Shown here piece after piece: positions 2,829 through 54,731 of a stretch of 64,000 nt of DNA; within the stretch, counting starts at the first letter, position 1, and each line of letters starts with the position of its first letter. The stretch lies in NCBI GenBank assembly GCA_028865725.1, contig JAGWJP010000001.1, forward strand, positions 377,954 to 441,953. The letters are read 5' to 3'. Under the pieces are notes generated by a model. That model did no database searches, was not told the origin of the DNA, and saw only the letters and a list, made by a program, of their open reading frames with translations. The DNA is from Patescibacteria group bacterium (lineage in GTDB: Bacteria > Patescibacteriota > Minisyncoccia > UBA6257 > JACRHW01). The position numbers and the translations under genes were made by a program.

Positions 2829-4751
2829 GTGATGGTGTCAACAAATAGCCCCATGTATACGATTAAGGCACTCGTGATAGAATCTTCTCTTCCGGATCCA
2901 ATTCTTATTTATTATGCAAAAGAGGATCTTTCCCGCGGAAGTTTGGTTGTGGTTCCTCTCCGCAACAAACTCGTCCCCGCATTTGTTATGGAGTCATCCC
3001 CTCTTCTCGATCGTAAATTATCGATTAAGCAAGCCGGATATTCCTTACAGCGGGTGACGCGCGTGATTACGTATGCCCCTATTATTTCGCCGCGTCAAAA
3101 AATTTTTTTTGAACGTCTTTCTTTTTATTATCATGTATCAATTCCCTCACTTTTAAAATTTCTACTTCCACCCATACAAAAAACATTCTTGCATTTTCCC
3201 ATAGTGCAACCTAAGACAGATCGTATTACACCACACGTTTTTTCTATTGTCTTTCGTTCTGTACATGATTCACCCTACATGATTGATGATGCTCTACTTC
3301 AACGCTTGTCTGAAGAAGGGGGGCAGCACTGCATTATCTTTCCCACCCATGCCATTCTTTCAGAAACACTGGCGCGTCTTGCTCCCTCTCAACACATTGT
3401 CGCGTATAAGAAAAGCATGAAAGCGAAAGAAGTTCGTGAACTTTGGATACGTATCTTGCAAGGAGAACCTGTTGTGGTATTAGGACTTCCTTCAGCGTTA
3501 TACCTTCCATGGCAATACCTGTGTTCAGTTCATGTGGCACATGCTTCACGTGAATTATACAATTCATCGTCCTTTCCTTTTATCGATGGCGTGCGCGCGG
3601 CCAGAGAAGCAGGTATGATATATAATGCGCGAGTAGTGCTTCTTGATGTACTCCCGCGTGTGGGATGGGGACTTTCTAATCATGAAGGATCGCGCTTTGC
3701 TTTACCCACAATCACACTGTTTACTGAACATTCCATCCCTTCTTGGCACATGCCGCAGGAGCGACCTTTGTGGCCTGACGTCATGCGTAATGCGATCATT
3801 CAAAAACGAGATTCTGCAAAAAAGATTTTAATTTTTGTCAATCGACGTGGCTATATCCCTCTTGTTGCGTGTGCATCGTGTGGTTATACTTATGCGTGTC
3901 CAAAATGTTCCGCAGGATTCACTCTTCACAAGGAGAAGGGCGCCTTACTCTTACGTTGCCATCGTTGTGGATATGAAGAGGTCTCCCCCCATGATGTCTG
4001 TCCGTTGTGCCACGGTTTTTTTACGCGTTGGTATGGGGCGGGAACTGCGCGCGTAATACAGGAGAGCCTGCAGTTGTTTCCCGGATATACTCATGTGCAA
4101 TTTGATAGTGATGTGGCACACACTAATCTTCAAGAAGAAAAATTATTAGATACGTTTTTATATGCAGAGCATGCCGTACTTGTGACGACGGAATTACTCT
4201 TCAAACATATTCTACCCGCGAGCGATCTGACTCTCGTTGTTGATGTGGATCGTATGATGAATATTCCAGATTTTTCTACGGAAGAACGCATGGTATATCG
4301 ACTTTCTGCGCTTGGTATGCGTTCTCGTTGCTGCATGATATCAACTCATAATCCTGACCGTGCGGTTTTTCGCGCACTTACCGATCCCTCGCAATTTTTT
4401 GAAGACGAACTTGCTAATCGGAAGCGGTACGAATTTCCCCCGTATTGTGAGATAGTACGCGTAACATATGCGCACAAAGATAAAAGACGTGTTCAAGAAT
4501 TACTCGTTCATATTGCGAACGATATGCGCAAGGTGCTTACTAAAATTCAAAAAGAACATGAATTTGAGATTATAGATCCGTTTCCTGCATATGTTGAGCG
4601 TATACACAATCGCTATCAATACCACCTTCTTGTGAAAATGAAAAAAAATATTTGTGAACGTACTGATGCGGATATTGCAGCGCGTAATACACTCCTCCGC
4701 ACGATACCACAAGGATGCACGATAATTATCGAACCCCCTTCTATTTTCTAA
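2829..4751 (+). CDS. priA: primosomal protein N' (PriA)-like, helicase motifs degenerate
   Basis: N-terminal 3'-DNA-binding-like segment; Cys-rich zinc region CASCGYTYACPKCSAGFTLH...LRCHRCGY...CPLCHG typical of PriA; but no GxxxxGK[ST] Walker A anywhere, and the DEEH box position reads VHVAHAS. Confidence 0.6.
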   Translation: MMVSTNSPMYTIKALVIESSLPDPILIYYAKEDLSRGSLVVVPLRNKLVPAFVMESSPLLDRKLSIKQAGYSLQRVTRVITYAPIISPRQKIFFERLSFYYHVSIPSLLKFLLPPIQKTFLHFPIVQPKTDRITPHVFSIVFRSVHDSPYMIDDALLQRLSEEGGQHCIIFPTHAILSETLARLAPSQHIVAYKKSMKAKEVRELWIRILQGEPVVVLGLPSALYLPWQYLCSVHVAHASRELYNSSSFPFIDGVRAAREAGMIYNARVVLLDVLPRVGWGLSNHEGSRFALPTITLFTEHSIPSWHMPQERPLWPDVMRNAIIQKRDSAKKILIFVNRRGYIPLVACASCGYTYACPKCSAGFTLHKEKGALLLRCHRCGYEEVSPHDVCPLCHGFFTRWYGAGTARVIQESLQLFPGYTHVQFDSDVAHTNLQEEKLLDTFLYAEHAVLVTTELLFKHILPASDLTLVVDVDRMMNIPDFSTEERMVYRLSALGMRSRCCMISTHNPDRAVFRALTDPSQFFEDELANRKRYEFPPYCEIVRVTYAHKDKRRVQELLVHIANDMRKVLTKIQKEHEFEIIDPFPAYVERIHNRYQYHLLVKMKKNICERTDADIAARNTLLRTIPQGCTIIIEPPSIF

Positions 4752-4811: not shown

Positions 4812-5300
4812 TTGTTAAGAAACGCTATTGCCATGTTCAAAATTCTTACTATCCACGACAAACAATCAGAGCTATTTTTGAGAAAGAAGACAAATTCTGT
4901 CTCAGATCCCAAAATGGTCACCCGTTCATTTATCAATGAAATGAAAAAAACAATGATCGGGGCAAATGGCATTGGGCTCGCGGCGAATCAAATCGGTAAT
5001 AATACGCGTATTTTTGTGGCGACTCATGCGGGTAAGTTTTATGTGTTTATCAACCCGATACTTCTAAAATCCTCAACGGAAGAAGACACAATGGAAGAAG
5101 GCTGCCTAAGTGTCCCGAATGTATATGGAGCAGTGACACGAGCCTCGAAAGTGGTAATTCAAGGAATCGATGTGCGTGGCAAATTGGTGAAGTTAAAAGC
5201 AGTCGGCCTCCTTGCGCGTATTTTTCAGCATGAACTTGACCATCTTAATGGAACGTTATTTATTGATAAAGCATCAGAAACCTATTCAGTAGAAGACTAA
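4812..5300 (+). CDS. def: peptide deformylase
   Basis: Motifs GIGLAANQIG, EGCLSVP and HELDHLNG. Confidence 0.9.
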   Translation: MLRNAIAMFKILTIHDKQSELFLRKKTNSVSDPKMVTRSFINEMKKTMIGANGIGLAANQIGNNTRIFVATHAGKFYVFINPILLKSSTEEDTMEEGCLSVPNVYGAVTRASKVVIQGIDVRGKLVKLKAVGLLARIFQHELDHLNGTLFIDKASETYSVED

Positions 5301-5306
5301 TCGACA

Positions 5307-6161
5307 TTGTGTATGCGTTATGTATTTTGGGGAACTCCTGAGTTTGCGGTTATTATCCTGCGCGGTCTTATAGACGGAGGGTATATTCCCTCCGCAGTTG
5401 TTACGAATCCAGATAAACCGGTAGGACGAAAACACATTATTACCCCCCCGCCGATAAAGCAGTATGTTGATGAATACTGTCTGCGTACAGGCGTAGTTAT
5501 TCCTATCTTGCAGTCCGAGAAAATACATGATATAGCCGAGCAATTGCGGGCGTTTATCCCTGATATATTTATCGTCGCCGCGTATGGAAAATTAATTCCA
5601 CCCTCTATCCTCGATATTCCCGCGAAAGGGAGTATTAACGTGCATCCGTCACTTCTCCCTCGTTATCGTGGTCCCACGCCCATTCAAACCTCCCTGCTCA
5701 ATGGTGATAAAAAATCTGGCGTTTCTGTAATGCTTCTTGACAAGCAAATGGATCATGGACCAATCCTTATGCAACGCGAAGCACCAATCGAGAAACAAAA
5801 TTACCTTGAATTATCAAAAGAGTTCGCAGAAATGGGTGCGCAGCTTCTTCTAGAAGCTATTCCAAAATGGATAGAGGGAAAGATTCAACCTATCTCGCAA
5901 AATGATAATGAAGCAACATTTACACGAATTTATACAAGAGAAGATAGTTTCCTTGACCTCACAAGTTCAATAGAAATGCTAGACCGTCAGATTCGCGCCT
6001 TAAATCCAGAGCCAGGTACTTATGTAATAAAGAATGGGAAACGTATTAAAATATTAAAAGCCCATATTGCTCATGATGTGCTTGTTCTCGACACCATCCA
6101 GCATGAGGGAAAGAAAGCAATGATCTGCGGAAAATCACTCGAAACTTTCCTTTCTCAATAG
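5307..6161 (+). CDS. fmt: methionyl-tRNA formyltransferase
   Basis: N-terminal VFWGTPEFA, HPSLLPRYRGPTPIQ, and a C-terminal domain; lies downstream of def. Confidence 0.9.
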   Translation: MCMRYVFWGTPEFAVIILRGLIDGGYIPSAVVTNPDKPVGRKHIITPPPIKQYVDEYCLRTGVVIPILQSEKIHDIAEQLRAFIPDIFIVAAYGKLIPPSILDIPAKGSINVHPSLLPRYRGPTPIQTSLLNGDKKSGVSVMLLDKQMDHGPILMQREAPIEKQNYLELSKEFAEMGAQLLLEAIPKWIEGKIQPISQNDNEATFTRIYTREDSFLDLTSSIEMLDRQIRALNPEPGTYVIKNGKRIKILKAHIAHDVLVLDTIQHEGKKAMICGKSLETFLSQ

Positions 6162-6163
6162 AA

Positions 6164-7180
6164 TTATGAGCGTGGCACTCCTTTGCATGCGCCAAAAAGG
6201 GTGATGCTGTCCCACGGTTTCCAGTTTGCGCCATTGCCAGACATTTCTGCAAATTTTTTAAGATTTGTAACCGGATCTTTTGCAGCTTGCACGCACTGTT
6301 CATACAACGCCTTGTCTTTAATGGTGCATGCATCCCGTTTTCCGAGCGGGGTAGAGGCTCCCTTACCTACGTAGTTATCAAACGCGGCGGGGCAGTTTAA
6401 GCCTCCAATAGAGTTTGCAGCAATGTTAATTTGTCCCAGTCCGAATACGGTGGATTGTGGTGTCGTATATCCATATTTACTTGGGTTATTATAGCCCCCG
6501 CAATAGGCAGTTGAAAGATATTGATCATTAGGATTAGGTGGAGAGATGTTGGGGTTGCCTCCGCTTTCTGCATTGCACACACACGCAGCAAGTTCTACAT
6601 TGTGTGTAAAAAATTGCTTGAGATAGTCTACCGAACAGAATCCTGTCGAAGAAGGTTTATATGTTTGTTGCGAAGATGCTGAAGAAGGCACCCATACCGC
6701 ACTTTCTCGTGTACTAAGCCCAATACTTTGTACGTTTTGATTAAGACCGATATTAAGTGGTTGGCTCGCGGTGCATGAAAATTTGTACCACGTGCCTTCG
6801 ATGTTGCTGCCCCCCGCGAGAAATCGTACCACGGTATTTACAATCACAAACGAACAGTAGATTATTACGAGCCACTTCAATGTCGACCAAATCATAGTGC
6901 GTGCCTCGTTAATTTTCCCCGTGTTTGAGCTGTAGACAATCATCAAGACTCCTGCGTAGGCAATGCGCAGAATAGCTACGACGGGGCTCCACGTGAGAAG
7001 AAAAAGATAGATATTATTAAGGAGCACCCCAAAATCGCATAGTCCGCAATTTCCCCCATTACACGGCACTAACCCTTGTGCAGACGCTAAAAATGGGAGA
7101 GTGATTAACAAAAGCGTACAGGAACATGCAAACAGAATTTTTCTAGCGAGATTTATAGACGGCAGCATAGTCATTAGCAT
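6164..7180 (-). CDS. secreted pilin-like (VirB2/TrbC-like two-TM) protein with Cys-rich C-terminal domain
   Basis: Signal peptide; conserved GLVPCNGGNCGLCD motif; two hydrophobic helices separated by a short loop; C-terminal domain with ...NAESGGNPN...GLGQIN...GNGANWKPW, weakly reminiscent of SLT lytic-transglycosylase motifs (ES / GLMQ / AYNAG); paralog of 7143..8183. Confidence 0.45.
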   Translation of the reverse strand: MLMTMLPSINLARKILFACSCTLLLITLPFLASAQGLVPCNGGNCGLCDFGVLLNNIYLFLLTWSPVVAILRIAYAGVLMIVYSSNTGKINEARTMIWSTLKWLVIIYCSFVIVNTVVRFLAGGSNIEGTWYKFSCTASQPLNIGLNQNVQSIGLSTRESAVWVPSSASSQQTYKPSSTGFCSVDYLKQFFTHNVELAACVCNAESGGNPNISPPNPNDQYLSTAYCGGYNNPSKYGYTTPQSTVFGLGQINIAANSIGGLNCPAAFDNYVGKGASTPLGKRDACTIKDKALYEQCVQAAKDPVTNLKKFAEMSGNGANWKPWDSITLFGACKGVPRS

Positions 7181-8183
7181 TCGAGCTGTATTTTACATTC
7201 GTATCCCAAAATTTATCTTTTGAATTTAATTTTCTGATAAGTGCTGGCTTTCCTGAGCCACTGTATCCATTTGGATCAACGAAGTAGATATCGTAACTTC
7301 CATCGCTTTGTGCTTTCATATCAAGTACCATGGTCCAATGTTCTCCGCTTCCTTCTCCTCTTGTGTGCGTTTGAAGAACCTCCCCCTTTGAAATATAAGT
7401 ATCTGCAAGATTTTTGAAAAATGAGTCTGGAGGATGAGCTCCTTTTGATACGGTGTCTGGTACAAGCCCTATGAACGTACCGCTATTATCCCCGAGTTTA
7501 TTCATATTTCTCGCACACGCAGTTGGTCCATAGGTTGGGTTGTTGGGATTATTTTGGTTATATGCAGACGGATTCATAAGATAATTGTTATACATTGTTT
7601 TTGCAAGCGGATTCAAATTGCTTACAATATCTGAAGGAAGACTGGTTGCTATTTTTCCTCCCGACGTAATTGTTCCTGTGGGATTGGAGGTTGGGGGGTT
7701 TAGTGCCGCACTTTCTGTTGTTCGTAGACCTACCATTAAGACGTTTTCATTGAGTCCTATTTGTGCCGCAGAACCTGTACAGGAGAAGGTAAGAAATCCA
7801 TTCGGACCGCCACGTTGTATTGCATCACCACCCACCGCCAGAAGTACCTGATCTACAATGAGCCAAGAACCAAACGCGATCGCGAGGCCAATAAGAGTCG
7901 TAATAATAAGTCCTCGAGATTTCTCTGCTTTTCCAGGATTCGCACTGTTGATAATCATTTGAACCCCGGCATACGTTAAAAGTCCAATGGCAAATAATGC
8001 AGCAATACCCAATAGCCACATATAAATATTGTGGATAAGGACCAGCACGTCGCAGAGAGAGCATTGAAGTACATCGCCTTGGCATGCGGAAGGAACGAGA
8101 CCTGCATCAGCCGCAAACACTGCGACAGGAAACAGAACAACTGATACAAGCGCGATCATAACTAATAAAAAACGAAATGGCAT
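7143..8183 (-). CDS. secreted pilin-like (VirB2/TrbC-like two-TM) protein with C-terminal putative papain-like hydrolase domain
   Basis: Signal peptide; GLVPSACQGDVLQCSLCD motif; two-TM hairpin; C-terminal Cys...His pattern (PTACARN ... GEHWTMVLD ... DPNGYSG), weakly NlpC/P60/CHAP-like; overlaps the downstream paralog by 38 nt. Confidence 0.45.
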   Translation of the reverse strand: MPFRFLLVMIALVSVVLFPVAVFAADAGLVPSACQGDVLQCSLCDVLVLIHNIYMWLLGIAALFAIGLLTYAGVQMIINSANPGKAEKSRGLIITTLIGLAIAFGSWLIVDQVLLAVGGDAIQRGGPNGFLTFSCTGSAAQIGLNENVLMVGLRTTESAALNPPTSNPTGTITSGGKIATSLPSDIVSNLNPLAKTMYNNYLMNPSAYNQNNPNNPTYGPTACARNMNKLGDNSGTFIGLVPDTVSKGAHPPDSFFKNLADTYISKGEVLQTHTRGEGSGEHWTMVLDMKAQSDGSYDIYFVDPNGYSGSGKPALIRKLNSKDKFWDTNVKYSSNANDYAAVYKSR

Positions 8184-8216: not shown

Positions 8217-8570
8217 TTATGCAGCGGGTGGAGTAAGATTGGGGGGCAAGGGGGTAAATGAGTTTGAAGGAGGTGGAGTTGGGACGGAAGGCGCGGAAAC
8301 ACATGCTCCGGTGCGGCTCCCTAAAACTTCTAGTACTGCATAGACGAGACCTTGCGCGAACAAAATAACCGCAAGGCCTATCACGCTCCACTTAAGCGTT
8401 TCAGCACCCTTTTTCACACCTTGGCCGCCTTGCGAGGTGAGAAATTGAAACGCGCCTATAATGATATATACCACGACAAGTGCAATCCCGATATTTCGAA
8501 TAAATGCCGTGATATTCGCGATGATATCGCAAATTGTTTTTCCTGCGAGCGGATCGATAGCGTTAAACAT
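8217..8570 (-). CDS. small two-TM protein (pilin-like or holin-like), Pro-rich tail
   Basis: 117 aa; two TM helices separated by a short GGQGVKKG loop; C-terminal Pro-rich tail; no signal peptide or Cys motif. Confidence 0.4.
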   Translation of the reverse strand: MFNAIDPLAGKTICDIIANITAFIRNIGIALVVVYIIIGAFQFLTSQGGQGVKKGAETLKWSVIGLAVILFAQGLVYAVLEVLGSRTGACVSAPSVPTPPPSNSFTPLPPNLTPPAA

Positions 8571-15048: not shown

Positions 15049-16485
15049 TTAGTCAATAGCTACGGATACTTTGGCGCTATTTTTAGGTACCGAGGTAACC
15101 CAGAAGGGCCATAATGATATTTTTAGGGATTCAATTGCTGTATCGGTGCTCAGCAATTGTTTGATTTCATCGGTGTTTTTTCCAAGGATTGCGTGTGTGA
15201 GTGCTTTCGTATCGATAGGGGTACGCAACATGTCTTTTGCCTCATAGGAAAATGCGGCGAGCGTACGCGCATCATTAATGCGTAAGGTACCGTATGAGAG
15301 GGTCATATCCACTGATTCCAGAGAGCTTGCCTCTTGCAACAACAGATTTTGCGCAAGTGTTTTCACGTCGTCTTCTTTGAATCCAAGGGCGCGGAGTTCC
15401 ACAGTCCCCGTAAACTTAAACGATGAAACAGCATCCCCCAGTGCGTGGTCTGCCGACGAGTCGGTAAGTGTGTAGTCAGTCGCGCCATTTAAAAATATAT
15501 ATCCTTTTGATTTTTCAGTAAGCTCTGTGTTGAGAACTGTTTGTACTGAATTGATGATATCTGTTTTTGCATGTTGAATATCGTTGGCATTTACCGCTTG
15601 TATATTGCCCTCAGACCCCCCGCTCATCGTTTGCGTAGATTTACCATAGAAACCTTCATATCGCGCAGACCCTTTAAAGCCCGGGATAGTAAACGTAGTT
15701 GGCGCGATATTGAAAGAGGCTCCAGGCTGATCTGCCGTTACGTGTGCATCTATGAAATTGGGTACCAGTTTTCCTCCTACCAGCTTTGCTCCCGGGACAG
15801 TAATACCGGTATCAAGTCGGAACAATTTTCCATCGAGGGATAAAAAGCGCGTGGTTGCGATAAGACGTTGCGGACTCGTCGAATAGTTATTATAAATAGT
15901 AATACTGCCCCTTGCTTTTTGTGTTGATGTCTCTTTTGTCGTGGTATATTCTTTGGTGAGTGTGCGAGTGAGAGTAAACACTTTTGCCGGAATCGTTTGG
16001 TTTTGTGTATCTATTTCATGCACAGCGGTGGAGGCTGTTGCTGCGGATGTAAGCGATTTTATGGTTTGTTGAGCGTGAACAGTAATAGTTGCGCGAGGAA
16101 GAAGCACAGTAGCTACATACCATACCACGAGTAGGCACCCCAAACCTATCGCGATATTGATATATAAAACAGTACGCTTTCGTGGGGAAAAAGGATTAGG
16201 ATTGTCTTCGGGTTTTGCGTGCGTGTCAGGTACCTCCTCCTCATTATTGCGTTCTTTTTTCTTTTTAAATAGTTCCCAATGAGAGAGTGAATTCGAATTC
16301 TTCAAATCTTCCTTTGAATAGAGCGTTTCTATAGGATCCCTACCTTCTCGTTGGGGAGAGGTGGAATCGTGTCGCGGTTTTATATCAACTACAAGTGGGT
16401 GGTGATCAGACATGTTGCTAAGCTTACTGGTATTATACCAGATTTGCATCAAAACACACAATCCACATATAACACAGATTGACAT
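15049..16485 (-). CDS. membrane-anchored hypothetical protein with large extracytoplasmic domain
   Basis: Charged N-terminal region, single TM (VLYINIAIGLGCLLVVWYVATVLL), about 330 aa Thr/Ser-rich ectodomain; true start probably an internal Met. Confidence 0.4.
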   Translation of the reverse strand: MSICVICGLCVLMQIWYNTSKLSNMSDHHPLVVDIKPRHDSTSPQREGRDPIETLYSKEDLKNSNSLSHWELFKKKKERNNEEEVPDTHAKPEDNPNPFSPRKRTVLYINIAIGLGCLLVVWYVATVLLPRATITVHAQQTIKSLTSAATASTAVHEIDTQNQTIPAKVFTLTRTLTKEYTTTKETSTQKARGSITIYNNYSTSPQRLIATTRFLSLDGKLFRLDTGITVPGAKLVGGKLVPNFIDAHVTADQPGASFNIAPTTFTIPGFKGSARYEGFYGKSTQTMSGGSEGNIQAVNANDIQHAKTDIINSVQTVLNTELTEKSKGYIFLNGATDYTLTDSSADHALGDAVSSFKFTGTVELRALGFKEDDVKTLAQNLLLQEASSLESVDMTLSYGTLRINDARTLAAFSYEAKDMLRTPIDTKALTHAILGKNTDEIKQLLSTDTAIESLKISLWPFWVTSVPKNSAKVSVAID

Positions 16486-17115: not shown

Positions 17116-18342
17116 ATGTCATTTTCTGTTCACAAAGGCAGGATAGGAGCCGTGCTCGCCTTACTCCTTGTGGGAGGTGGAGTTTTGATATATTTTGCAT
17201 ATACCTCATCACGGTTACCCGGTTCATCTGTCCCATCCTCTCCCTCTTCGGTGCAGCAACCTTGGATAGAAGTTGTTACTCCTCCTGTGTTTGATGTCGC
17301 GACTCATAAGGAATTGCAAACAGGTGATGAGCTTGCTGAAGGTAGCACTGTCGAAGCCGGGCCTGCGGGTCTTGCAAACATTTATTTTGCCAACGGCTCA
17401 CTTATGCGTGTTGATTCCAATACCCGATTTACATTACAGAATGTTTCTTATGATACAAAAACACGTACTTCAGTTACCAGAATACAACTTATTATCGGGA
17501 GGGTGTGGTCAAAGCTTATTGCGCTTGCAACACCCGAATCGGTGTGGGAGGTAAAAACAGTAAATGCGGTGGCGACTGTGCGTGGAACCGCATTTGGTGT
17601 AGAATACACGCCGGATAATGGTGGTACCACGCGGATTATTGGTGCCGAACATCAAATTAGTGTAGGTTTGGTGGATCCCGCGACGCAGAATGTCGTCGCG
17701 GATAATGCGGCAACAGTAACCTCAGGAACTTATGTTCAGATTACGACTCCCGACGTAGGCCGTGTGATCGCACACCAGGTTCCTGTTTCAGAAGTCGTTG
17801 TGGTGAAGAAAACCCCCGATACTATTTTGCAGCAACCATGGATTCAGCAATCCTTACAGGCAGATACAACCGTGGATAATCAATTGCAATCACTTCACAA
17901 CGACGTCAATGCGTACCAGGGACTCGTTGAACAACGGAAAATAGAGCTTCAAAATACAAATGGAACTCGGCCCACAACCAGTATTTCTGTTCCTCTCGCC
18001 AGCACCACGCTTACTATTGAAACGAACATGAATACCGATGACAGTCTTGCGGTCGGTGCTACCACTTTTTTCCATGCATACGTGCATCTTGAGAATGGCG
18101 CTACACAAGACGTGACTCCACATGCATCGTGGCAAGTTCATGGACCAATCGGAACGATTACTTCGGATGGAATATTTACTGCCGCACTTGATTCTCAGCG
18201 CGAGGCATATGGAAGCGGAACCGGATTCATATCGGCCTCATGGGAAGATGCTGCTCACCGTGTTTACAGTGCATCTTCACCAACGCTTGTGGTCGAAATT
18301 CCCGAACCCGCTCCTCCCGCTAACACTGTTGAGGGACAATGA
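17116..18342 (+). CDS. FecR-domain protein with C-terminal Ig-like (Big_2-like) domain
   Basis: N-terminal TM; FecR-like beta-rich region (TRFTLQNVSYD...RVWSKL...VATVRGTAFGVEY); C-terminal HASWQVHGPIGTITSDGIFTA. Confidence 0.5.
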   Translation: MSFSVHKGRIGAVLALLLVGGGVLIYFAYTSSRLPGSSVPSSPSSVQQPWIEVVTPPVFDVATHKELQTGDELAEGSTVEAGPAGLANIYFANGSLMRVDSNTRFTLQNVSYDTKTRTSVTRIQLIIGRVWSKLIALATPESVWEVKTVNAVATVRGTAFGVEYTPDNGGTTRIIGAEHQISVGLVDPATQNVVADNAATVTSGTYVQITTPDVGRVIAHQVPVSEVVVVKKTPDTILQQPWIQQSLQADTTVDNQLQSLHNDVNAYQGLVEQRKIELQNTNGTRPTTSISVPLASTTLTIETNMNTDDSLAVGATTFFHAYVHLENGATQDVTPHASWQVHGPIGTITSDGIFTAALDSQREAYGSGTGFISASWEDAAHRVYSASSPTLVVEIPEPAPPANTVEGQ

Positions 18343-20111
18343 AGCAAGAACGCATTTCATTTTTTATCATTGGATTATGTGTGGGCATAGTAACCCTTAT
18401 TTCTTTGTGGGCTGGATTTTTTACTGGATTCGAACACATATTTGAAGATCTTTTGATAACGACGAAGCCTTTTAGCGATTCTATCGTGCTTGTGACGATT
18501 GATAATAGTTCGCTCGCTACCCTGGGGCAATGGCCATGGCCTCGAGCGTTTTTTGCACAAGCACTCACCACGCTGGAAAACGTTCATCCTAAAGCGGTGG
18601 GGCTTGATGTGGCGTTTTCCGAAGCATCTCGATTGGGTTCGGCAGACGATGAAGCATTGGCGGGTATTCTCAAAAACCTTTCCTATCCGCTCGTGTTACC
18701 CCTCGAGAGTAATGGCGCTCTTCATCTTGGGTATACACCTCCTCGTGTGGATTCTTTGCTCACGCCTCTCCCGTTATTTACTGACAATACCCACACTTCG
18801 CTTGGGGATGTTCATCTTGTTCCTGACGTAGACGGTGTTGTGCGCAGATTTGCCCCCCGCATAGAAGTTGGAGGGAATGCTACAGAGCAATACAATTCAT
18901 TTGGCTATGAGGTGGCGCAACAAGCACGCCTTCCTGTATCTCCGCTTCCCAACGATGCAACATTACGTATTGTTTACGCGGCCTCAACCGGACATATCCA
19001 ACGTATACCTTTTTCTCGTATCATCGATAACGATCCCACCGCTCTCTCGCTCCTCAAGAACAAAATTATTCTGATTGGTGCAACCGCGCCCGATCTTCAC
19101 GATGAACAGCGAACTCCTTCTTCCGGAGGGAGCAATATGAGTGGTGTAGAAATCCAGGCCAATATTCTGAATATGATTCTTTTAGGATATCGGGAAACAA
19201 ATCTTCCCTTTTTTCCCGCCTCCATGATTTTATTTTTCGTTGCGCTTATTCCTGCGCTTGTTTTCACTCTATTGAAAGGCGCGATAAAACCGTTACTGGT
19301 AAATGTCGCGTTAGGCGTGATATATCTCATCATTATTGTGCTTTTGTTTGAACAAGGCATTGTAGTAAATCTTGTACACGTTTCGCTTGCGTGGATCCTT
19401 TCATCGCTTTCACTTTTTGTCTATCGTTATTTCAGGGTCGAGCGCGAGAAACGTGAAGTACAAAAAATATTCTCAAAATATGTGTCAAGTGATGTACTGA
19501 ACCTTATTTTAGAACATCCGGAACACGTCGCATTGGGTGGTGAGGAGAAAGAGATCACCGTCCTCTTCACCGATATTCGGGGATTTACTACCATTTCTGA
19601 AGCGACATCACCCCAAGACTTGGTTCAGCTTCTTAATCGTTATTTTAGTGCGATGACAGAGGTGGTACTCAAGAACAAGGGATTACTTAACCAATATATT
19701 GGCGATGCCATCATGGCGTTTTGGGGTGCTCCCGTGAACGACCCTGATCAGGCAGACCATGCGGTAGAGACGGGATTTGAGATGTTAGAGCGACTTCATA
19801 TTTTAAATGAGGAATTTACGCGCGAAGGAAAACCCGCTATTCACATAGGGGTAGGAATTTATACCGGTCCTGCAGTGATTGGTAATATCGGTTCCGAGGT
19901 GCGTTTGGAATATACTGCGATTGGCGACACAGTAAATGTTGCCTCCCGTTTTGAGGGATTGAATAAGAAATACGAGAGCTCGATTATTATCGGAGAAACT
20001 ACAAAAGAAAAATTAAAACACGACTATCAGTTTAAGTTTCTCGATACCACGGAGGTAAAAGGAAGAAAAGAAGCATTGCGTGTTTATACTGTTGAACGCT
20101 CGTTAGAATAA
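18339..20111 (+). CDS. CHASE2-sensor class III adenylate/guanylate cyclase
   Basis: Periplasmic CHASE2-like N-terminal region, TM helices, then cyclase core VLFTDIRGFTTISE...YIGDAIMAFWGAP; start ATGA overlaps the FecR stop. Confidence 0.8.
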   Translation: MKQERISFFIIGLCVGIVTLISLWAGFFTGFEHIFEDLLITTKPFSDSIVLVTIDNSSLATLGQWPWPRAFFAQALTTLENVHPKAVGLDVAFSEASRLGSADDEALAGILKNLSYPLVLPLESNGALHLGYTPPRVDSLLTPLPLFTDNTHTSLGDVHLVPDVDGVVRRFAPRIEVGGNATEQYNSFGYEVAQQARLPVSPLPNDATLRIVYAASTGHIQRIPFSRIIDNDPTALSLLKNKIILIGATAPDLHDEQRTPSSGGSNMSGVEIQANILNMILLGYRETNLPFFPASMILFFVALIPALVFTLLKGAIKPLLVNVALGVIYLIIIVLLFEQGIVVNLVHVSLAWILSSLSLFVYRYFRVEREKREVQKIFSKYVSSDVLNLILEHPEHVALGGEEKEITVLFTDIRGFTTISEATSPQDLVQLLNRYFSAMTEVVLKNKGLLNQYIGDAIMAFWGAPVNDPDQADHAVETGFEMLERLHILNEEFTREGKPAIHIGVGIYTGPAVIGNIGSEVRLEYTAIGDTVNVASRFEGLNKKYESSIIIGETTKEKLKHDYQFKFLDTTEVKGRKEALRVYTVERSLE

Positions 20112-41345: not shown

Positions 41346-41531
41346 TCACCATGAAGACTTGCGTACGCCTGGAATCTGGCCTCGCGAGGCAAGCTCGCGG
41401 AAACAAATTCGACAGAGATTAAAGTTTCTTATATACCCTCGCTTTCTTCCGCAACGAAAACAACGGCGTACCTCACGAGTACTGTATTTTGGTTTCTTTG
41501 CTGCACGCGCAATGACTGATTGTTTTGCCAT
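41346..41531 (-). CDS. rpsZ: 30S ribosomal protein S14 type Z (zinc-binding)
   Basis: 61 aa with [23 protein letters not shown]. Confidence 0.9.
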
Positions 41532-41551
41532 AATACAATGATAAGTGGAAT

Positions 41552-42058
41552 TTATTTTTTAAATCGTACGCCGAGAGATTCGAAGAATGCTTGCGCGTCT
41601 TCTTTTTTGTCAGTAGTGGACACTACCACTACCTGGAGTGAAAATGGTGCTTTTGCATTTTCATTAATCACTTCTGGAAATACATTAAATTCCTTAAATC
41701 CGATTGAAAGACTATTGGTAGATATTGTGGAATGTTCAATGCCGCGAAAATCGCGTACACGAGGAAGCGCAAGGTTTACTAGGCGTGTCATGAAGTCGCG
41801 GGCCCGCACCCCCCGTAATGTCGCTTTGAGGCCAACAGGCATCCCCTTTCGTAATTTGAATGTCGCAATCGACTTATTACTTAACACTATTTTCGGTTTC
41901 TGTCCACTCAAAAGACTAAAAAGCCGCGCCACATCATCAAGTGTCTCTTTTTGGTTTTTTGACTGGTTTAAAATCCTACCAATACCTGCATTTACTACTA
42001 CTTTAGTAACGCGCGGTGTAGCCATTTTGTTTTCTTTTTTTGCGTGTGTCTTATTCAT
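41552..42058 (-). CDS. rplE: 50S ribosomal protein L5
   Basis: [14 protein letters not shown]...; start placed at an internal Met because the ORF-track start would overlap rplX by about 80 nt. Confidence 0.8.
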
Positions 42059-42065
42059 ACTGTGC

Positions 42066-42374
42066 TTACAATTCTGCGTGGCATTTTTTGCATACCTCAA
42101 TTTTGGTTCCATTTGCCACACTATGTCCTCTGCGCGTGCGTACGCCACATTTACCGCATACGCGCATCACATTTGAAGCATGAATGCTTCGCGATACTGA
42201 AATAATCTCGCCTTTTTGTCCTTGTTGCTTGGGGCGAGCATGCTTTTTATACATATTTGCCCCTTCTACCACTACACGCGTGGAATCCTTAAGGACCCGC
42301 ACTATTCGTCCTGTTTTTCCACGCTCCTTTCCTTTAATAATGTAGACCGTGTCTCCTTTCTTAATCATAGACAT
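42066..42374 (-). CDS. rplX: 50S ribosomal protein L24 with C-terminal Cys4 zinc-ribbon extension
   Basis: KOW motif IKKGDTVYIIKGKERGKTGRI; tail CGKCGVRTRR...CKKCHAEL. Confidence 0.85.
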   Translation of the reverse strand: MSMIKKGDTVYIIKGKERGKTGRIVRVLKDSTRVVVEGANMYKKHARPKQQGQKGEIISVSRSIHASNVMRVCGKCGVRTRRGHSVANGTKIEVCKKCHAEL

Positions 42375-48345: not shown

Positions 48346-49545
48346 CTATTTCAGAATGCTGGTTACTACTCCGGCACCTACAGTTTTACCACCCTCACGG
48401 ATTGCGAAACGTTGTTTTTCTTCAAGTGCCACAGGAGAAATAAGTTTGACTTTAAATTTAATGCTATCACCCGGCATTACCATCTCTACTCCTTCCGGCA
48501 AGGTTACCTCACCTGTCACATCCGTTGTGCGAATATAGAACTGCGGTTTATAGCCTTTAAAGAATGGGGTATGCCGTCCTCCTTCTTCTTTCGTAAGGAT
48601 GAGAACCTCTGCCTCGAATTCTGTATGAGGAGTTACAGATCCTGGTTTTGCAAGCACCTGACCGCGCTCTACATCTTCTTTTTTAACACCGCGAAGAAGA
48701 ATACCGACATTATCGCCCGCACGCCCCTCATCAAGGGTCTTTTGGAACATTTCAACACCCGTGACGACTGTTTTCTGGGTAGGACGAAGACCAATAATCT
48801 CAACTTCTTCGTTTACTTTTACAATACCGCGCTCTACGCGTCCCGTGACTACGGTGCCACGTCCTTCAATCGTAAAGATATCTTCGATGGGCATCAAAAA
48901 TGGCTTGTCAGTAGGACGTACAGGCTCAGGAATATAAGAATCTAATGCATCCACGAGATCAAGAATAGGTTTGGTCGCAGGATCATCGAGCGAGGTTGCA
49001 TTTAATGCTTTTAACGCGGAACCACGAATAACCGGCACCTCGTCTCCAGGAAATTCATACTTGTTCAAAAGCTCGCGCACTTCTGTTTCGACGAGATCGA
49101 CAAGCTCTGGATCATCCACCATGTCCGCTTTATTCAAAAAGACCACAAGTGCGGGCACCCCTACTTGACGTGCAAGCAAAATATGCTCGCGAGTTTGCGG
49201 CATAGGGCCGTCCGCGGCAGATACCACAAGAATTGCGCCATCCATCTGCGCGGCGCCGGTAATCATGTTCTTGATATAGTCCGCGTGGCCTGGTGCATCA
49301 ATGTGTGCATAGTGGCGCTTTTCTGATTCGTACTCAGAGTGGTGCAAGGCAATCGTAATTCCGCGCGCCCTTTCTTCTGGTGCGTTGTCGATCTGATCAA
49401 CCGACTCTTCTTTTGCCACGAGTCCTTTAAGATGAAGGACGTGCGTGATTGCCGCCGTTAAGGTTGTTTTTCCATGGTCAACGTGACCAATGGTGCCCAC
49501 GTTGACGTGTGGCTTTGTGCGCTCAAATTTTGCTTTTTCTGCCAT
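48346..49545 (-). CDS. tuf: elongation factor Tu
   Basis: [23 protein letters not shown]-loop GTPase; full EF-Tu. Confidence 0.95.
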
Positions 49546-49926: not shown

Positions 49927-51351
49927 TTACCAAATTTTTTGGGTAAGAACCTTCAATACTTTTGTACGAAACGGTACGCATGTTTCGGGTGGTTTCTGTA
50001 TTTCTTGAGGAACCGATACCATAAGCGATGCCTTCTCGCCTCGATCAATCCGCTCAATACCGTCCCGCGCCTCGAGAAGAATATCAATATTATTGTCCAC
50101 GCTATTTGGATTAGCGCACAAAAGCGCATTTTGAAATGTCTTGCGCGCGTGTTCTGTTTCTCCAAGCAGCTCTTCTATTAATCCGCGTGCGACGAAGAAA
50201 TAGAGAGGTGGAGTACAACCCTCTTTGATGCCTACATCCTTATACTCTAACAAATAAGTAATAGCCCCTTGGATTCTTTGCTTGAGCGTTTCTACTGTTA
50301 CGCGCGCGTGTTCTGGTACTCCATATACAGCTGCACTCACTGCTGCGGCAACCCAAACATTCGCAGGAGGAGAAAGTGCGACTGTTAATCGCAAAGGAGC
50401 TTGTCCGTGGCGGCCATACTCTAGAGAAATGTTCTGCCAAAAAAATCTAGTGCCAAACACGCGTTTCATGCTTTTGACAAAGCGTTGCCACTCTTCACGC
50501 GTAATTACTTTTTCCGTCTTCTTCAGAGAAGGGTGGTCCTCCCCGCGTGTGCGAATCGCCTCTTTCATTGCGTGGGCACTTTCATACCGCGCGGTTTTTT
50601 CAAGCTTGGTTGCGCGTACGATCACCGGCACGAGCGGAATCTGAAGCTTGTTGAGTTCTACGTGTGCCTCATCAAACGGAATTGGGTTTGCCCCCGTAAG
50701 AAGTATCTCCATGGTACGCCCAAGACAGTAGAGATCGCTCTGCGGTCCCGTAAAACCGCTGACGTGCTCAGGAGATGCAAATTCAATCGTCAAAACGCTC
50801 GTATGCTGAGTTCCCTTGCTCTTTCCTGCGCTGTAACACGCGATGCCGAAATCGATGAGCACAATGGTACCATCCTTCTTGCGCACAAGATTGCTCGGCT
50901 TAATATCCCGGTGGAGTACAATAGGCTTTTCATCGCGTGCAGTATGGAGATATTCAAGAATAGAAAGAACTTGAAGTGCCATATCGGCAACTTCATCGTC
51001 GGACAAGGTGCCTTTTTTCTCTAAAATTTCTTCAAGCGTTTCTCCTTCGATATATTCCATCACAATGCAATAGCGGTCTCGTTCCTCGTCATAAAACGAA
51101 TCGTAATATTTCGGAATACCTGGATGTTCTAATGTGCGAAGCAATTCACACTCGCGCGTCCATGTTCGCACAAGGTCAGCACGCGGGTCTTTGCCCTGCA
51201 CGCCATCAGACAATGTAATAGTTTTCAATACACATAGTCTGTTGTCCGTATTGCGTATCACAAGTATGGTATGCCCCATGCCGCCTTCACCCAGATGATG
51301 GACTTGCGCGTAGTTCGCAAAGCTTCCGTAAGCGTTTTCTTGTGTAGCCAC
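49927..51351 (-). CDS. Hanks-type Ser/Thr protein kinase with about 200-aa C-terminal domain of unknown function
   Basis: LGEGGMG...VLK (Gly-rich loop and Lys); HRDIKPSNL catalytic loop; DFG; SPE-like; no TM segment. Confidence 0.8.
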   Translation of the reverse strand: MATQENAYGSFANYAQVHHLGEGGMGHTILVIRNTDNRLCVLKTITLSDGVQGKDPRADLVRTWTRECELLRTLEHPGIPKYYDSFYDEERDRYCIVMEYIEGETLEEILEKKGTLSDDEVADMALQVLSILEYLHTARDEKPIVLHRDIKPSNLVRKKDGTIVLIDFGIACYSAGKSKGTQHTSVLTIEFASPEHVSGFTGPQSDLYCLGRTMEILLTGANPIPFDEAHVELNKLQIPLVPVIVRATKLEKTARYESAHAMKEAIRTRGEDHPSLKKTEKVITREEWQRFVKSMKRVFGTRFFWQNISLEYGRHGQAPLRLTVALSPPANVWVAAAVSAAVYGVPEHARVTVETLKQRIQGAITYLLEYKDVGIKEGCTPPLYFFVARGLIEELLGETEHARKTFQNALLCANPNSVDNNIDILLEARDGIERIDRGEKASLMVSVPQEIQKPPETCVPFRTKVLKVLTQKIW

Positions 51352-52604: not shown

Positions 52605-54731
52605 TTATAATTTTTTTCCAGAAATAATCTGTTCCGCTACGCTTTTAGGCGCTTCCTCGTAACTCCCAAACTCCATGGTAAACGTACCCCTTCCCTCGGT
52701 CATAGAACGAAGTTTCGTGGCATAACCAAACATTTCAGAGAGCGGAACCTTGGCATCAATGACCTTAATGTTCATCCTATCTTCAATAGATTCAATTCTT
52801 CCTCGTTTTGCATTGAGATCTCCCGTAACATCTCCAAGAAATTTAACAGGTACCGTAACTTGAATTTTCATAATAGGCTCAAGGATCACAACCCCCGCAC
52901 GTTTTGCGGCCTCTTGGAATGCCATAGAACCTGCGATTTTGAATGCTGCTTCTGAAGAATCAACTTCGTGGAATGAACCGTCATAGAGGGTTACTGCCAC
53001 ATCCACGACTGGATACCCCGCCACGACGCCTTTTGCAATAGATTCTTTGATACCTTTTTCCGCCGCGGGAATGAACTCCTGGGGAATAGCGCCTCCTTTG
53101 ATGGCGTTCACAAACTCAAAACCCTTCCCCCGCTCAAGCGGTGCAATGCGAATACGCACATGACCATACTGACCCTTTCCTCCCGACTGGCGAATATATT
53201 TTCCTTCTGCTTCTGCCTCTCCTCTGATCGCTTCTTTGTAGGCAACTTGAGGACGTCCCACATTTGCTTCCACTTTAAACTCGCGAAACATACGATCCAC
53301 GATAATCTCAAGATGGAGCTCACCCATTCCATAAATCAGAGTTTCGTTAGTATCAGGATCGCTCTTAATACGAAAGGTGGGGTCTTCTTGAGCAAGACGA
53401 CGCAATGCGATTCCCATTTTTTCCTGATCAGCTTTTGTTTTAGGTTCGATACGCACGGAGATAACAGGTTCGGGGAATATAATTTTTTCTAATACAATGG
53501 GCGCATCAGGATCACACAATGTATCTCCGGTAATCGTTTCTTTAAGCCCCACAACTGCCCCAAGGTCACCTGCATACATCTCCTCAATTTCTTCACGATG
53601 GTTGGCGTGCATGCGCACCAAGCGCCCCACGCGTTCTGTTTCTCCCTTTGTTGAGTTCAGTACGTAGGTACCGCGTTTCAACACTCCGGAGTAGACACGC
53701 ACGAAAATAAGACTTCCAATGAAAGGATCTGTTGCAATTTTGAATGCAAGTGCTGAAAGAGGCTCCTCATCGCTTGGATGACGCTCGCTTTCACCGCCAG
53801 TCTTTGGGTCCTCCCCCTTAATGGCCGGGATATCCGATGGCGCAGGAAGATAATCAATGACTGCATCGAGTACAAGCTGGACTCCTTTATTTTTGAGAGC
53901 AGAACCGCACAATACCGGAACAATAGTACCTGCAATAGTTGCTTTCCTCAATGCGCTACGCAACTCATTTTCACTAATTTCTTTTCCTTCTAAATACTTG
54001 GTGAGCAGGGCATCATCTTGTTCTACAATTTTTTCGATAAGATTATGACGATGTGTTTCTGCTTCTGCAGAAAGTGATGCAGGAATTTCTGAAATGGTAA
54101 TGCGTTCTCCATGCTCCCCTTCAAATCCTACTGCTTTCATGCGAATAAGATCTACCACGCCGCTAAAATCCGCTTCCAAGCCAATCGGCAACGAAATAGG
54201 TACCGCGTGTGGCGTAAGGCGCTCATGAATAGACTGAAGAGAATGCTCAAAGCTTGCCCCCATACGATCAAGTTTGTTGATAAAGCAAATACGCGGCACA
54301 TGATACTTGTCTGCTTGGCGCCATACGGTTTCCGATTGAGGCTCTACTCCCGCCACCCCATCGAACACCACAACACCACCATCCAATACGCGCAACGATC
54401 GTTCTACCTCTACAGTAAAATCAACGTGACCCGGCGTATCGATAATATTAATGCGATGTTCATGTTCTTTTTTTATCTTTTCAAGATCCGCGGCGCCCTC
54501 CTTAAGATATGAGGGTGTCCAAAAACACGTCGTCGCTGCAGCGGTAATCGTAATACCGCGCTCCTGCTCCTGTTCCATCCAGTCCATCACGGCGGCCCCT
54601 TCGTGTACCTCACCAATTTTGTGTGAAATACCCGTATAGAACAAAACACGCTCGGAAACAGTTGTTTTTCCTGCGTCGATATGTGCAATAATGCCGATAT
54701 TTCTATATTTCTCTAAAGGATATTGTCTCAT
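52605..54731 (-). CDS. fusA: elongation factor G
   Basis: [22 protein letters not shown]; 708 aa five-domain EF-G. Confidence 0.95.

Follow-up and report, generated by a model that had tools for sequence, protein, structure and literature searches.

A gene on the forward strand of a 64 kb stretch of the 462,897-bp contig JAGWJP010000001.1 (assembly GCA_028865725.1; the whole stretch is referred to here as the window) from a Patescibacteria group bacterium encodes an orthologue of the replication-restart protein PriA in which the ATP-site motifs have been erased and the DNA-binding and zinc-binding parts have been kept. The same state recurs across a large part of Patescibacteria, where the gene is under purifying selection and occupies a conserved locus. 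We consider it probable that the protein acts as an ATP-independent scaffold for fork recognition and helicase loading. The original prediction, made from the letters of the window, had proposed an ATPase-dead PriA kept for scaffolding or restart loading, or else a lineage with a non-canonical restart mechanism.

A PriA orthologue with an erased ATP site

The priA-like open reading frame (ORF) is intact from 2829 to 4751 (forward strand) and gives 640 amino acids when read from the GTG at 2829. The true start is likely the ATG at 2853—yielding 632 residues and a stop codon—because all close homologues open with MY(I/T)(I/V)K, which matches that ATG. The 632-residue product is identical to an NCBI protein (P0001) annotated as 'MAG: hypothetical protein KGI50_02075 [Patescibacteria group bacterium]', where MAG stands for metagenome-assembled genome, and NCBI likewise places the start at ATG 2853. 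The features of the gene are given below, with each motif change written as consensus followed by the sequence of the window protein.

2853..4751, forward strand: priA orthologue encoding a motif-less PriA ('pseudohelicase'), from the ORF list, homologue starts, structure matches and an AlphaFold2 model
2853..3188, forward strand: 3' DNA-binding domain (3'BD), with helicase lobe 1 directly after it, from Pfam PriA_3primeBD and alignment
3252..3275, forward strand: former Walker A motif or P-loop (motif I), GVTGSGKT to FRSVHDSP
3528..3548, forward strand: former Walker B motif or DEEH box (motif II), IVIDEEH to VHVAHAS
3834..3854, forward strand: motif IV, FVNRRGY, kept, with NRRG aligned
3870..4010, forward strand: Cys-rich region (CRR) with four CxxC pairs, presumably binding two zinc ions, from Pfam Zn_ribbon_PriA and alignment
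4182..4217, forward strand: degenerate motif V (VTTELLFKHILP), GTQMxAKGH to VTTELLFK-H, with the Thr kept and the KGH part deleted
4302..4346, forward strand: former motif VI (LSALGMRSRCCMIST), QxAGRAGR to ALGMRS, with a deletion of ~6 residues and the GRxGR arginine fingers gone
4440..4748, forward strand: PriA C-terminal domain, from Pfam PriA_C

Pfam recognised three domains in the window protein—PriA_3primeBD (PF17764; 28.5 bits against a cutoff of 22.7), Zn_ribbon_PriA (PF18319; 26.6 bits against a cutoff of 26) and PriA_C (PF18074; 46.5 bits, E 6.7e-12)—and detected neither DEAD nor Helicase_C. The N-terminal DNA-binding region and the CxxC zinc-binding insertion that the original prediction had described as kept were recovered in this way, with all eight Cys aligned. 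The PriA structures of Escherichia coli and Klebsiella pneumoniae matched residues 156-627 at E ~1e-30. Among the NCBIfam models the protein groups with PriA, yet it scores below the cutoff of TIGR00595 (208.6 bits, cutoff 230.35) and reaches 224.9 bits against the cutoff of 813 set for NF004066. Models of the PRK05580 type matched with E values down to 1.9e-66 and those of the PRK14873 type with 4e-20 or weaker; the actinobacterial PRK14873 family (NF011451-NF011455) does not include it, the best of these models, NF011453, giving 71.4 bits against a cutoff of 812.

An AlphaFold2 model of the window protein, based on an 81-sequence alignment, was very confident (predicted local distance difference test score, pLDDT, 92.6; predicted template modelling score, pTM, 0.91). 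It comprises the 3'BD, two RecA-like lobes, the CRR and the C-terminal domain but lacks a winged-helix domain, the entire E. coli winged-helix region being a gap in the alignment with the window protein. This domain is not family-defining, since it is also missing from short PriAs with complete motifs, such as P0083. The nine best matches in a Foldseek search against the PDB were all PriA chains, the first being 8fak_H, from a complex of E. coli PriA with PriB and a fork, at a template modelling (TM) score of 0.81. We considered, and dropped, the idea that the CRR of the motif-less PriA is fixed in its fork-bound position (TM 0.81 to 8FAK against 0.68-0.70 to apo structures): a control AlphaFold2 model of the motif-complete P0083 showed the same preference (0.85 against 0.73), which is thus not specific to the motif-less form. 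As a separate observation, AlphaFold2 without templates sets the CRR of both short PriAs, motif-less and motif-complete, in the rotated position of 8FAK (released in 2023) and not in the apo position of older crystals.

The ATP site was examined in alignments of the window protein with E. coli PriA (from NC_000913) and several motif-complete PriAs. In the AlphaFold2 model, the sequence FRSVHDSP falls where strand 131-136 ends and in the loop leading to helix 146-155, i.e., the place of the P-loop in the helicase lobe, and VHVAHAS aligns with E. coli IVIDEEH exactly as the original prediction had claimed. Motif Ia has changed from PEIxLTPQ to PTHAILSE, motif Ib from GTRSA to GLPSA and motif III from SAT to DVL, and the Q-motif is likewise lost. 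Regular-expression searches found no GxxxxGK[ST], GxGK[ST], D[ED]x[HQ] or GRxGR in the window protein, so that Walker A is absent as reported, and, extended to all six frames between 2600 and 4900, turned up no cryptic P-loop, DExH or GRxGR; nor did alignment to characterised and related PriAs bring out a P-loop or DExH box that was cryptic or shifted by an indel. The absence of these motifs is not a matter of chance, because K230, D320, E321, R584 and R587 (E. coli numbering) are invariant in all 100 motif-complete PriAs compared. Six separate ATP-site elements, and not one residue, are gone, which argues strongly for an ATPase-dead protein; the canonical site of the window PriA would be expected neither to bind nor to hydrolyse ATP.

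Conservation and spread of the motif-less form

Cluster representatives at 50% identity, 1.84 billion in all, were searched exhaustively with a profile; this gave 13,982 PriA-family matches, and the best 150 of these were almost all 590-690 amino acids long. A further profile search, which scored 8000 candidates from a word-indexed database, returned mostly motif-complete PriAs. Among the best 150, 145 were full length, and only two of the 145—P0083 (Ca. Torokbacteria) and P0156—had aligned GK[ST], DEEH and GRxGR; apparent P-loop matches without DEEH or GRxGR were seen in P0093 and P0109, that of P0109 lying far from the Walker A position. Across the clade, a short loop of variable sequence, often 'W-GEx-R', stands in place of the P-loop. 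The window protein and its five closest relatives, in which the motif II acidic residues and the motif Ib arginine are both lost, form the most degenerate branch. All named motif-less members belong to Patescibacteria, the Parcubacteria group or Ca. Spechtbacterales, except one labelled '[bacterium]'. The predicted motor-less PriA is therefore common to a large part of Patescibacteria, lineage-wide and not peculiar to the source genome. A PriA of this kind had already been described in Deinococcus. A literature search found no papers that link loss of PriA motifs with Patescibacteria, Parcubacteria or Saccharibacteria. The annotation of these proteins is inconsistent, many motif-less members being automatically named 'replication restart helicase PriA' and the most degenerate, like the window protein, 'hypothetical protein'; two members, P0028 (376.6 bits) and P0100 (284.5 bits), pass the TIGR00595 cutoff despite the motif loss.

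We then compared, column by column, 145 motif-less Patescibacteria sequences with the 100 motif-complete PriAs. Columns conserved at 90% or more in the motif-complete group but lost in the clade fell almost all within ATP-site elements, with few exceptions elsewhere: Q203 of the Q-motif, 224-233 of motif I, 257-258 of motif Ia, H323/D324 in the tail of motif II, A357/T358 of motif III, K544/G545 of motif V, and Q580, G583, R584, G586 and R587 of motif VI (here and below, E. coli numbering unless stated). The K544 and G545 columns are gaps in at least 90% of the clade, and the R587 column, which holds Arg in 100 of 100 motif-complete PriAs, is a gap in 121 of the 145 motif-less sequences and never Arg.

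The columns conserved in both groups include the eight Cys, H455, H464, R427/R428/G429, T539, the 3'BD residues Y18, G29 and K61, and the C-terminal PP motif (P631/P632), which is invariant. In the clade, 143 of 143 members carry the full set of eight Cys; in the window protein these form the pairs C340/343, C349/352, C369/372 and C383/386 (632-residue numbering), aligned with E. coli C436-C479 in the insertion within lobe 2. For the motif IV arginines, the R427 column holds Arg, and the R428 column Arg or Lys, in 142 of 145 sequences each; T539 of motif V is likewise Thr in 142/145, H359 of the window protein (H455 in E. coli) is present in 126/145, and Y20 of the window protein corresponds to the conserved Y18. 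In E. coli PriA, R427 and R428 bind the lagging-strand single-stranded DNA (ssDNA) within the PriA pore, and H455 stabilises a rotated position of the CRR (CRR-UP) that encircles the ssDNA and exposes the partner-docking surface (PMC13594977, published in 2026; see also PMC10175261). With these residues and the Cys retained and the ATP-site columns lost, the clade has thus kept the residues of the ssDNA pore and the platform and discarded the motor.

The 3'BD also carries gains specific to the clade. Two helix positions, K55 and K59 in the window protein, hold a basic residue in 96-97% of the motif-less sequences but are not conserved in motif-complete PriAs, and position 21 is aromatic (Y21 in the window protein). 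Extra DNA affinity from these residues would be a guess. Most members have Ser or Thr, and the window protein has Ile, in place of D17, the Asp that contacts the 3' end in E. coli. The residues through which E. coli PriA contacts PriB are not conserved, D438, T482 and H483 being replaced by Ser, Phe and Phe in the window protein.

The gene's position provides a further line of evidence. Two genes follow priA in the window.

4812..5300, forward strand: def, peptide deformylase (Pfam Pep_deformylase, E 5e-43)
5307..6161, forward strand: fmt, methionyl-tRNA formyltransferase (Pfam Formyl_trans_N and Formyl_trans_C)

The order def then fmt downstream of priA is also found in three distant motif-less members (L007, L008, L009). 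PriAs with complete motifs occur as well in MAGs labelled Patescibacteria or Parcubacteria (P0238, P0239, P0265, P0295 and P0340); two of the three motif-complete loci examined (L010, L012) show the priA-def-fmt arrangement, and the third (L011) is without def and fmt but has neighbours in common with L010. The shared locus therefore marks the motif-less proteins as degenerate positional orthologues and not extra paralogues, and the motif loss occurred inside Patescibacteria. The window protein is 23% identical to the nearest motif-complete PriA; a motif-complete PriA of Patescibacteria is 45-53% identical to clostridial PriAs.

The motif-less PriA is neither an artefact nor a pseudogene, because independent assemblies share the losses, the ratio of nonsynonymous to synonymous substitution rates (dN/dS) is ~0.11, and the priA-def-fmt locus is conserved. 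Orthologues on five other contigs, 38-43% identical to the window protein, are full length and show the same losses: L002 and L003 (two assemblies with an identical protein), L004 and L005 (groundwater Parcubacteria MAGs) and L006 (a MAG labelled Saccharibacteria). These independent full-length sequences also dispose of the frameshift or sequencing error that the original prediction had allowed for, no such error having been found. Between L004 and L005 (75% amino-acid identity), the Nei-Gojobori method gave a dN/dS of 0.11 overall, with 0.05 for the 3'BD, 0.08 for the CRR, 0.06 for the second half of lobe 2 and 0.18 for lobe 1, the former ATP-binding lobe—all values being approximate, as dS is near saturation. 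Lobe 1 is thus the most relaxed region, yet still constrained.

Putative function and competing explanations

The role in scaffolding and restart loading put forward by the original prediction gains support from the purifying selection, the confident PriA fold, the retained DNA-binding and CRR residues, the priA-def-fmt position, and precedents in Deinococcus radiodurans (discussed below) and E. coli. In E. coli, PriA carrying K230R (the priA300 allele) or K230A can still assemble primosomes and supports PriA-PriB restart in vivo, and the K230A protein loads DnaB in vitro (PMC5778457, PMC10175261). DNA binding, recruitment of DnaB and absence of ATPase activity are all predictions from sequence in the window protein. 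In the mechanism we envisage, the 3'BD, engaging the nascent leading-strand 3' end, and the surfaces of the lobes would recognise abandoned forks or D-loops. The lagging-strand template ssDNA may then be held in a pore formed by the CRR, lobe 2 and the C-terminal domain, as suggested by the retention of both arginines of motif IV, the Thr of motif V and the His equivalent to H455. The CRR surface would serve as the platform recruiting the replicative helicase DnaB, either directly or via an adaptor or loader. A motor-less PriA would be unable to clear a duplex lagging arm; as E. coli needs the PriA helicase to do so before the CRR closes around ssDNA (PMC13594977), restart would be limited to forks or D-loops already exposing ~9-11 nucleotides of lagging-strand template, or would depend on another helicase.

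Several points weigh against this reading. The motif Ib arginine, a likely DNA contact, is gone from the window protein, and the acidic residues of motif II (D/E-D/E-E) persist in ~70% of the wider clade, which the model leaves unexplained. A Pfam scan of 40 ORFs, including every ORF of at least 200 amino acids, found no gene for DnaB, DnaC/DnaI, DciA, DnaD, PriB or SSB in the window, nor was a DnaT gene found there; the loader partners to which the original prediction had pointed are accordingly missing from this 64 kb.

A rather unlikely alternative is that PriA has been repurposed, keeping its recognition of DNA structures and serving, instead of restart, in another job such as origin-dependent helicase loading, binding of recombination intermediates or regulation. 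The family evolves fast, as the low identity of the window protein to the nearest motif-complete PriA illustrates, and the residues gained in the 3'BD (K55, K59 and the aromatic residue at 21), together with the replacement of D17, could reflect a change of task; Patescibacteria genomes are reduced, and a helicase-loading role at the origin is conceivable in them. However, the locus and the domain order are the same as in motif-complete PriAs, the clade conserves the pore and CRR residues on which E. coli primosome assembly depends, and the gene neighbourhood shows no sign of a new pathway.

Considerably less probable is a cryptic or non-canonical nucleoside triphosphatase that uses residues outside the classical motifs. 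The persistence of motif II acidic residues in most of the wider clade would fit such an activity, as would the weak second nucleotide site proposed for E. coli PriA (PMC5778457). But motif II in the window protein reads AHAS, the former P-loop is short and unconserved across the clade, and the Q-motif, the KGH of motif V and both arginines of motif VI are deleted or replaced, when in E. coli the single K230R change already abolishes activity (PMC4504706, PMC5778457).

We regard as very improbable, and as already effectively refuted by the conservation data, the view that the gene is a functionless relic decaying on its way out of a reduced genome: genome reduction, the raised dN/dS of lobe 1 and the NCBI label 'hypothetical protein' would be in keeping with decay, but intact full-length ORFs occur in at least 140 clusters differing by more than 50% in sequence, the overall dN/dS is low, invariant columns are numerous and include the eight Cys, and the predicted fold is very confident. 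That the motif loss is an artefact of assembly, frameshift or binning is scarcely credible, for although the source is a metagenome-assembled genome, the other frames hold no motif remnants, the PriA alignment is continuous end to end, and the five other independent contigs are alike.

Returning to the scaffold reading, we advance only tentatively its widest form, in which a large part of Patescibacteria (at least ~140 clusters at 50% identity, all named members being of the Parcubacteria type) has long run replication restart with a motor-less PriA. If this were true, the clade would represent a natural minimal PriA, showing which residues suffice to sense forks and load the helicase: all eight Cys, the Arg pair of motif IV, the Thr of motif V, the H455-equivalent His, the 3'BD Tyr, the C-terminal PP and the clade-specific lysine pair of the 3'BD. 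It would also imply a direct or novel hand-off from PriA to DnaB, without PriB/DnaT or DnaD/DnaB/DnaI, in organisms with very few repair genes, and it raises the question of how genome-reduced bacteria reload DnaB. The spread of motif-less PriAs in itself strengthens the view that the essential job of PriA is structure-specific recognition and primosome nucleation, with the motor as an accessory, and it supplies a natural set of mutations separating the two functions.

Genomic surroundings and comparison with known systems

The window is unremarkable chromosomal DNA of a Patescibacteria genome. Its GC content is ~43%, and Pfam identified housekeeping neighbours: L27, L9, an S41 peptidase, def, fmt, a MurA-type EPSP-family enzyme, rpoA, AlaRS, MurJ, SecY, ribosomal proteins, EF-Tu and EF-G. 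A tblastn search with E. coli PriA found no second PriA-like gene in the window besides the ORF at 2829..4751. Several other genes were noted in passing. A trio of adjacent minus-strand ORFs (6164-7180, 7143-8183 and 8217-8570) has the look of secreted or membrane proteins, two matching Pfam T4SS_pilin and one, weakly, SLT_3 (lysozyme-like). A FecR-domain protein followed by an adenylate/guanylate cyclase with a CHASE2 sensor (17116-20111, forward strand) forms a signalling pair amid the housekeeping genes. A Ser/Thr protein kinase gene (474 amino acids, 49927-51351, reverse strand) lies between tuf (48346-49545) and fusA (52605-54731), an unusual insertion into the normally tight fusA-tuf arrangement. 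Finally, a 478-residue ORF (15049-16485, reverse strand) gave no Pfam match at E 1e-4 or better, and a 218-residue ORF (41520-42176, forward strand), on the opposite strand within the ribosomal-protein cluster, gave none at E 1e-3 or better and is probably spurious.

With E. coli PriA (structures 4NL4, 6DCR and 8FAK), the window protein shares the order 3'BD, lobe 1, lobe 2 with the CRR inserted, and C-terminal domain, and the motif-less clade conserves the eight Cys, R427/R428, T539 and H455. The window protein differs from it in having only ~20% identity, no winged-helix domain, no ATP site and no conserved PriB contacts. The motif-complete short PriAs of Patescibacteria (for example P0083, P0238, P0239 and P0340) have the same length class of ~650-670 amino acids, the same lack of a winged-helix domain and the same priA-def-fmt locus, and are the best BLAST matches of motif-less members outside the clade; unlike the window protein, however, they retain GSGKT, DEEH and GRxGR, and in domain searches they come out as complete DEAD/Helicase_C proteins.

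A comparable loss is seen in actinobacterial PriAs of the PRK14873 type (P0199-P0210 from Nocardioidaceae and Nonomuraea; 640-1014 amino acids), which are without Walker A, DEEH and GRxGR and keep the 3'BD and the CxxC pairs. Some of them are entered in NCBI/UniRef as 'primosomal protein N' family DNA-binding protein', and our literature search found nothing specific on motif loss in actinobacterial PriA. In contrast to the window protein, these PriAs match NF011452 (E 1e-234), true members scoring 600-1000 bits. BLAST scores between the Patescibacteria and actinobacterial motif-less groups are ~70-150 bits, below the score of each group to motif-complete PriAs; P0028, for example, gives 402 bits against the motif-complete P0083 and ~100 bits against the actinobacterial group. 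A small third group from metagenome contigs (P0192, P0196 and P0197; 715-779 amino acids) has no P-loop and no motif VI, with DEEH still present in P0192, and its best matches are motif-complete PriAs and not the other motif-less groups. A first neighbour-joining tree separated the Patescibacteria and actinobacterial groups, and a larger one placed all motif-less PriAs together at 13/100 bootstrap, probably through long-branch attraction. We relied on neither tree for origins, using best-match scores, the split between families of hidden Markov models and synteny instead. Independent motif loss in Patescibacteria and Actinobacteria is the better-supported scenario, given the best-match scores and the separate curated model families.

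The closest precedent is the PriA of D. radiodurans (PMC4504706; Lopper, Boone and Morrow 2015), which experiments showed to be inactive both as an ATPase and as a helicase, although it interacts with DnaB and its affinities for ssDNA and forks are similar to those of E. coli PriA. Both proteins descend from PriA, have lost the catalytic residues of Walker A and Walker B, and have been retained. In Deinococcus-Thermus, though, the P-loop is still recognisable, with the Lys of GKT changed to Arg (PMC4504706), whereas the window protein has lost the P-loop altogether, along with the Q-motif, DEEH, motifs III and VI and the KGH portion of motif V; the comparison uses the published description of the Deinococcus protein. 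The phylum differs as well, and the organism labels suggest that the Patescibacteria form arose independently of the Deinococcus-Thermus PriAs. A review lists Deinococcus as the sole exception (PMC5778457). The motif-less exception is much wider, covering a fast-evolving Patescibacteria clade under purifying selection along with the actinobacterial PRK14873 PriAs. As a kind, the PriA pseudohelicase has been known since 2015; the Patescibacteria form is more extreme and far more numerous.

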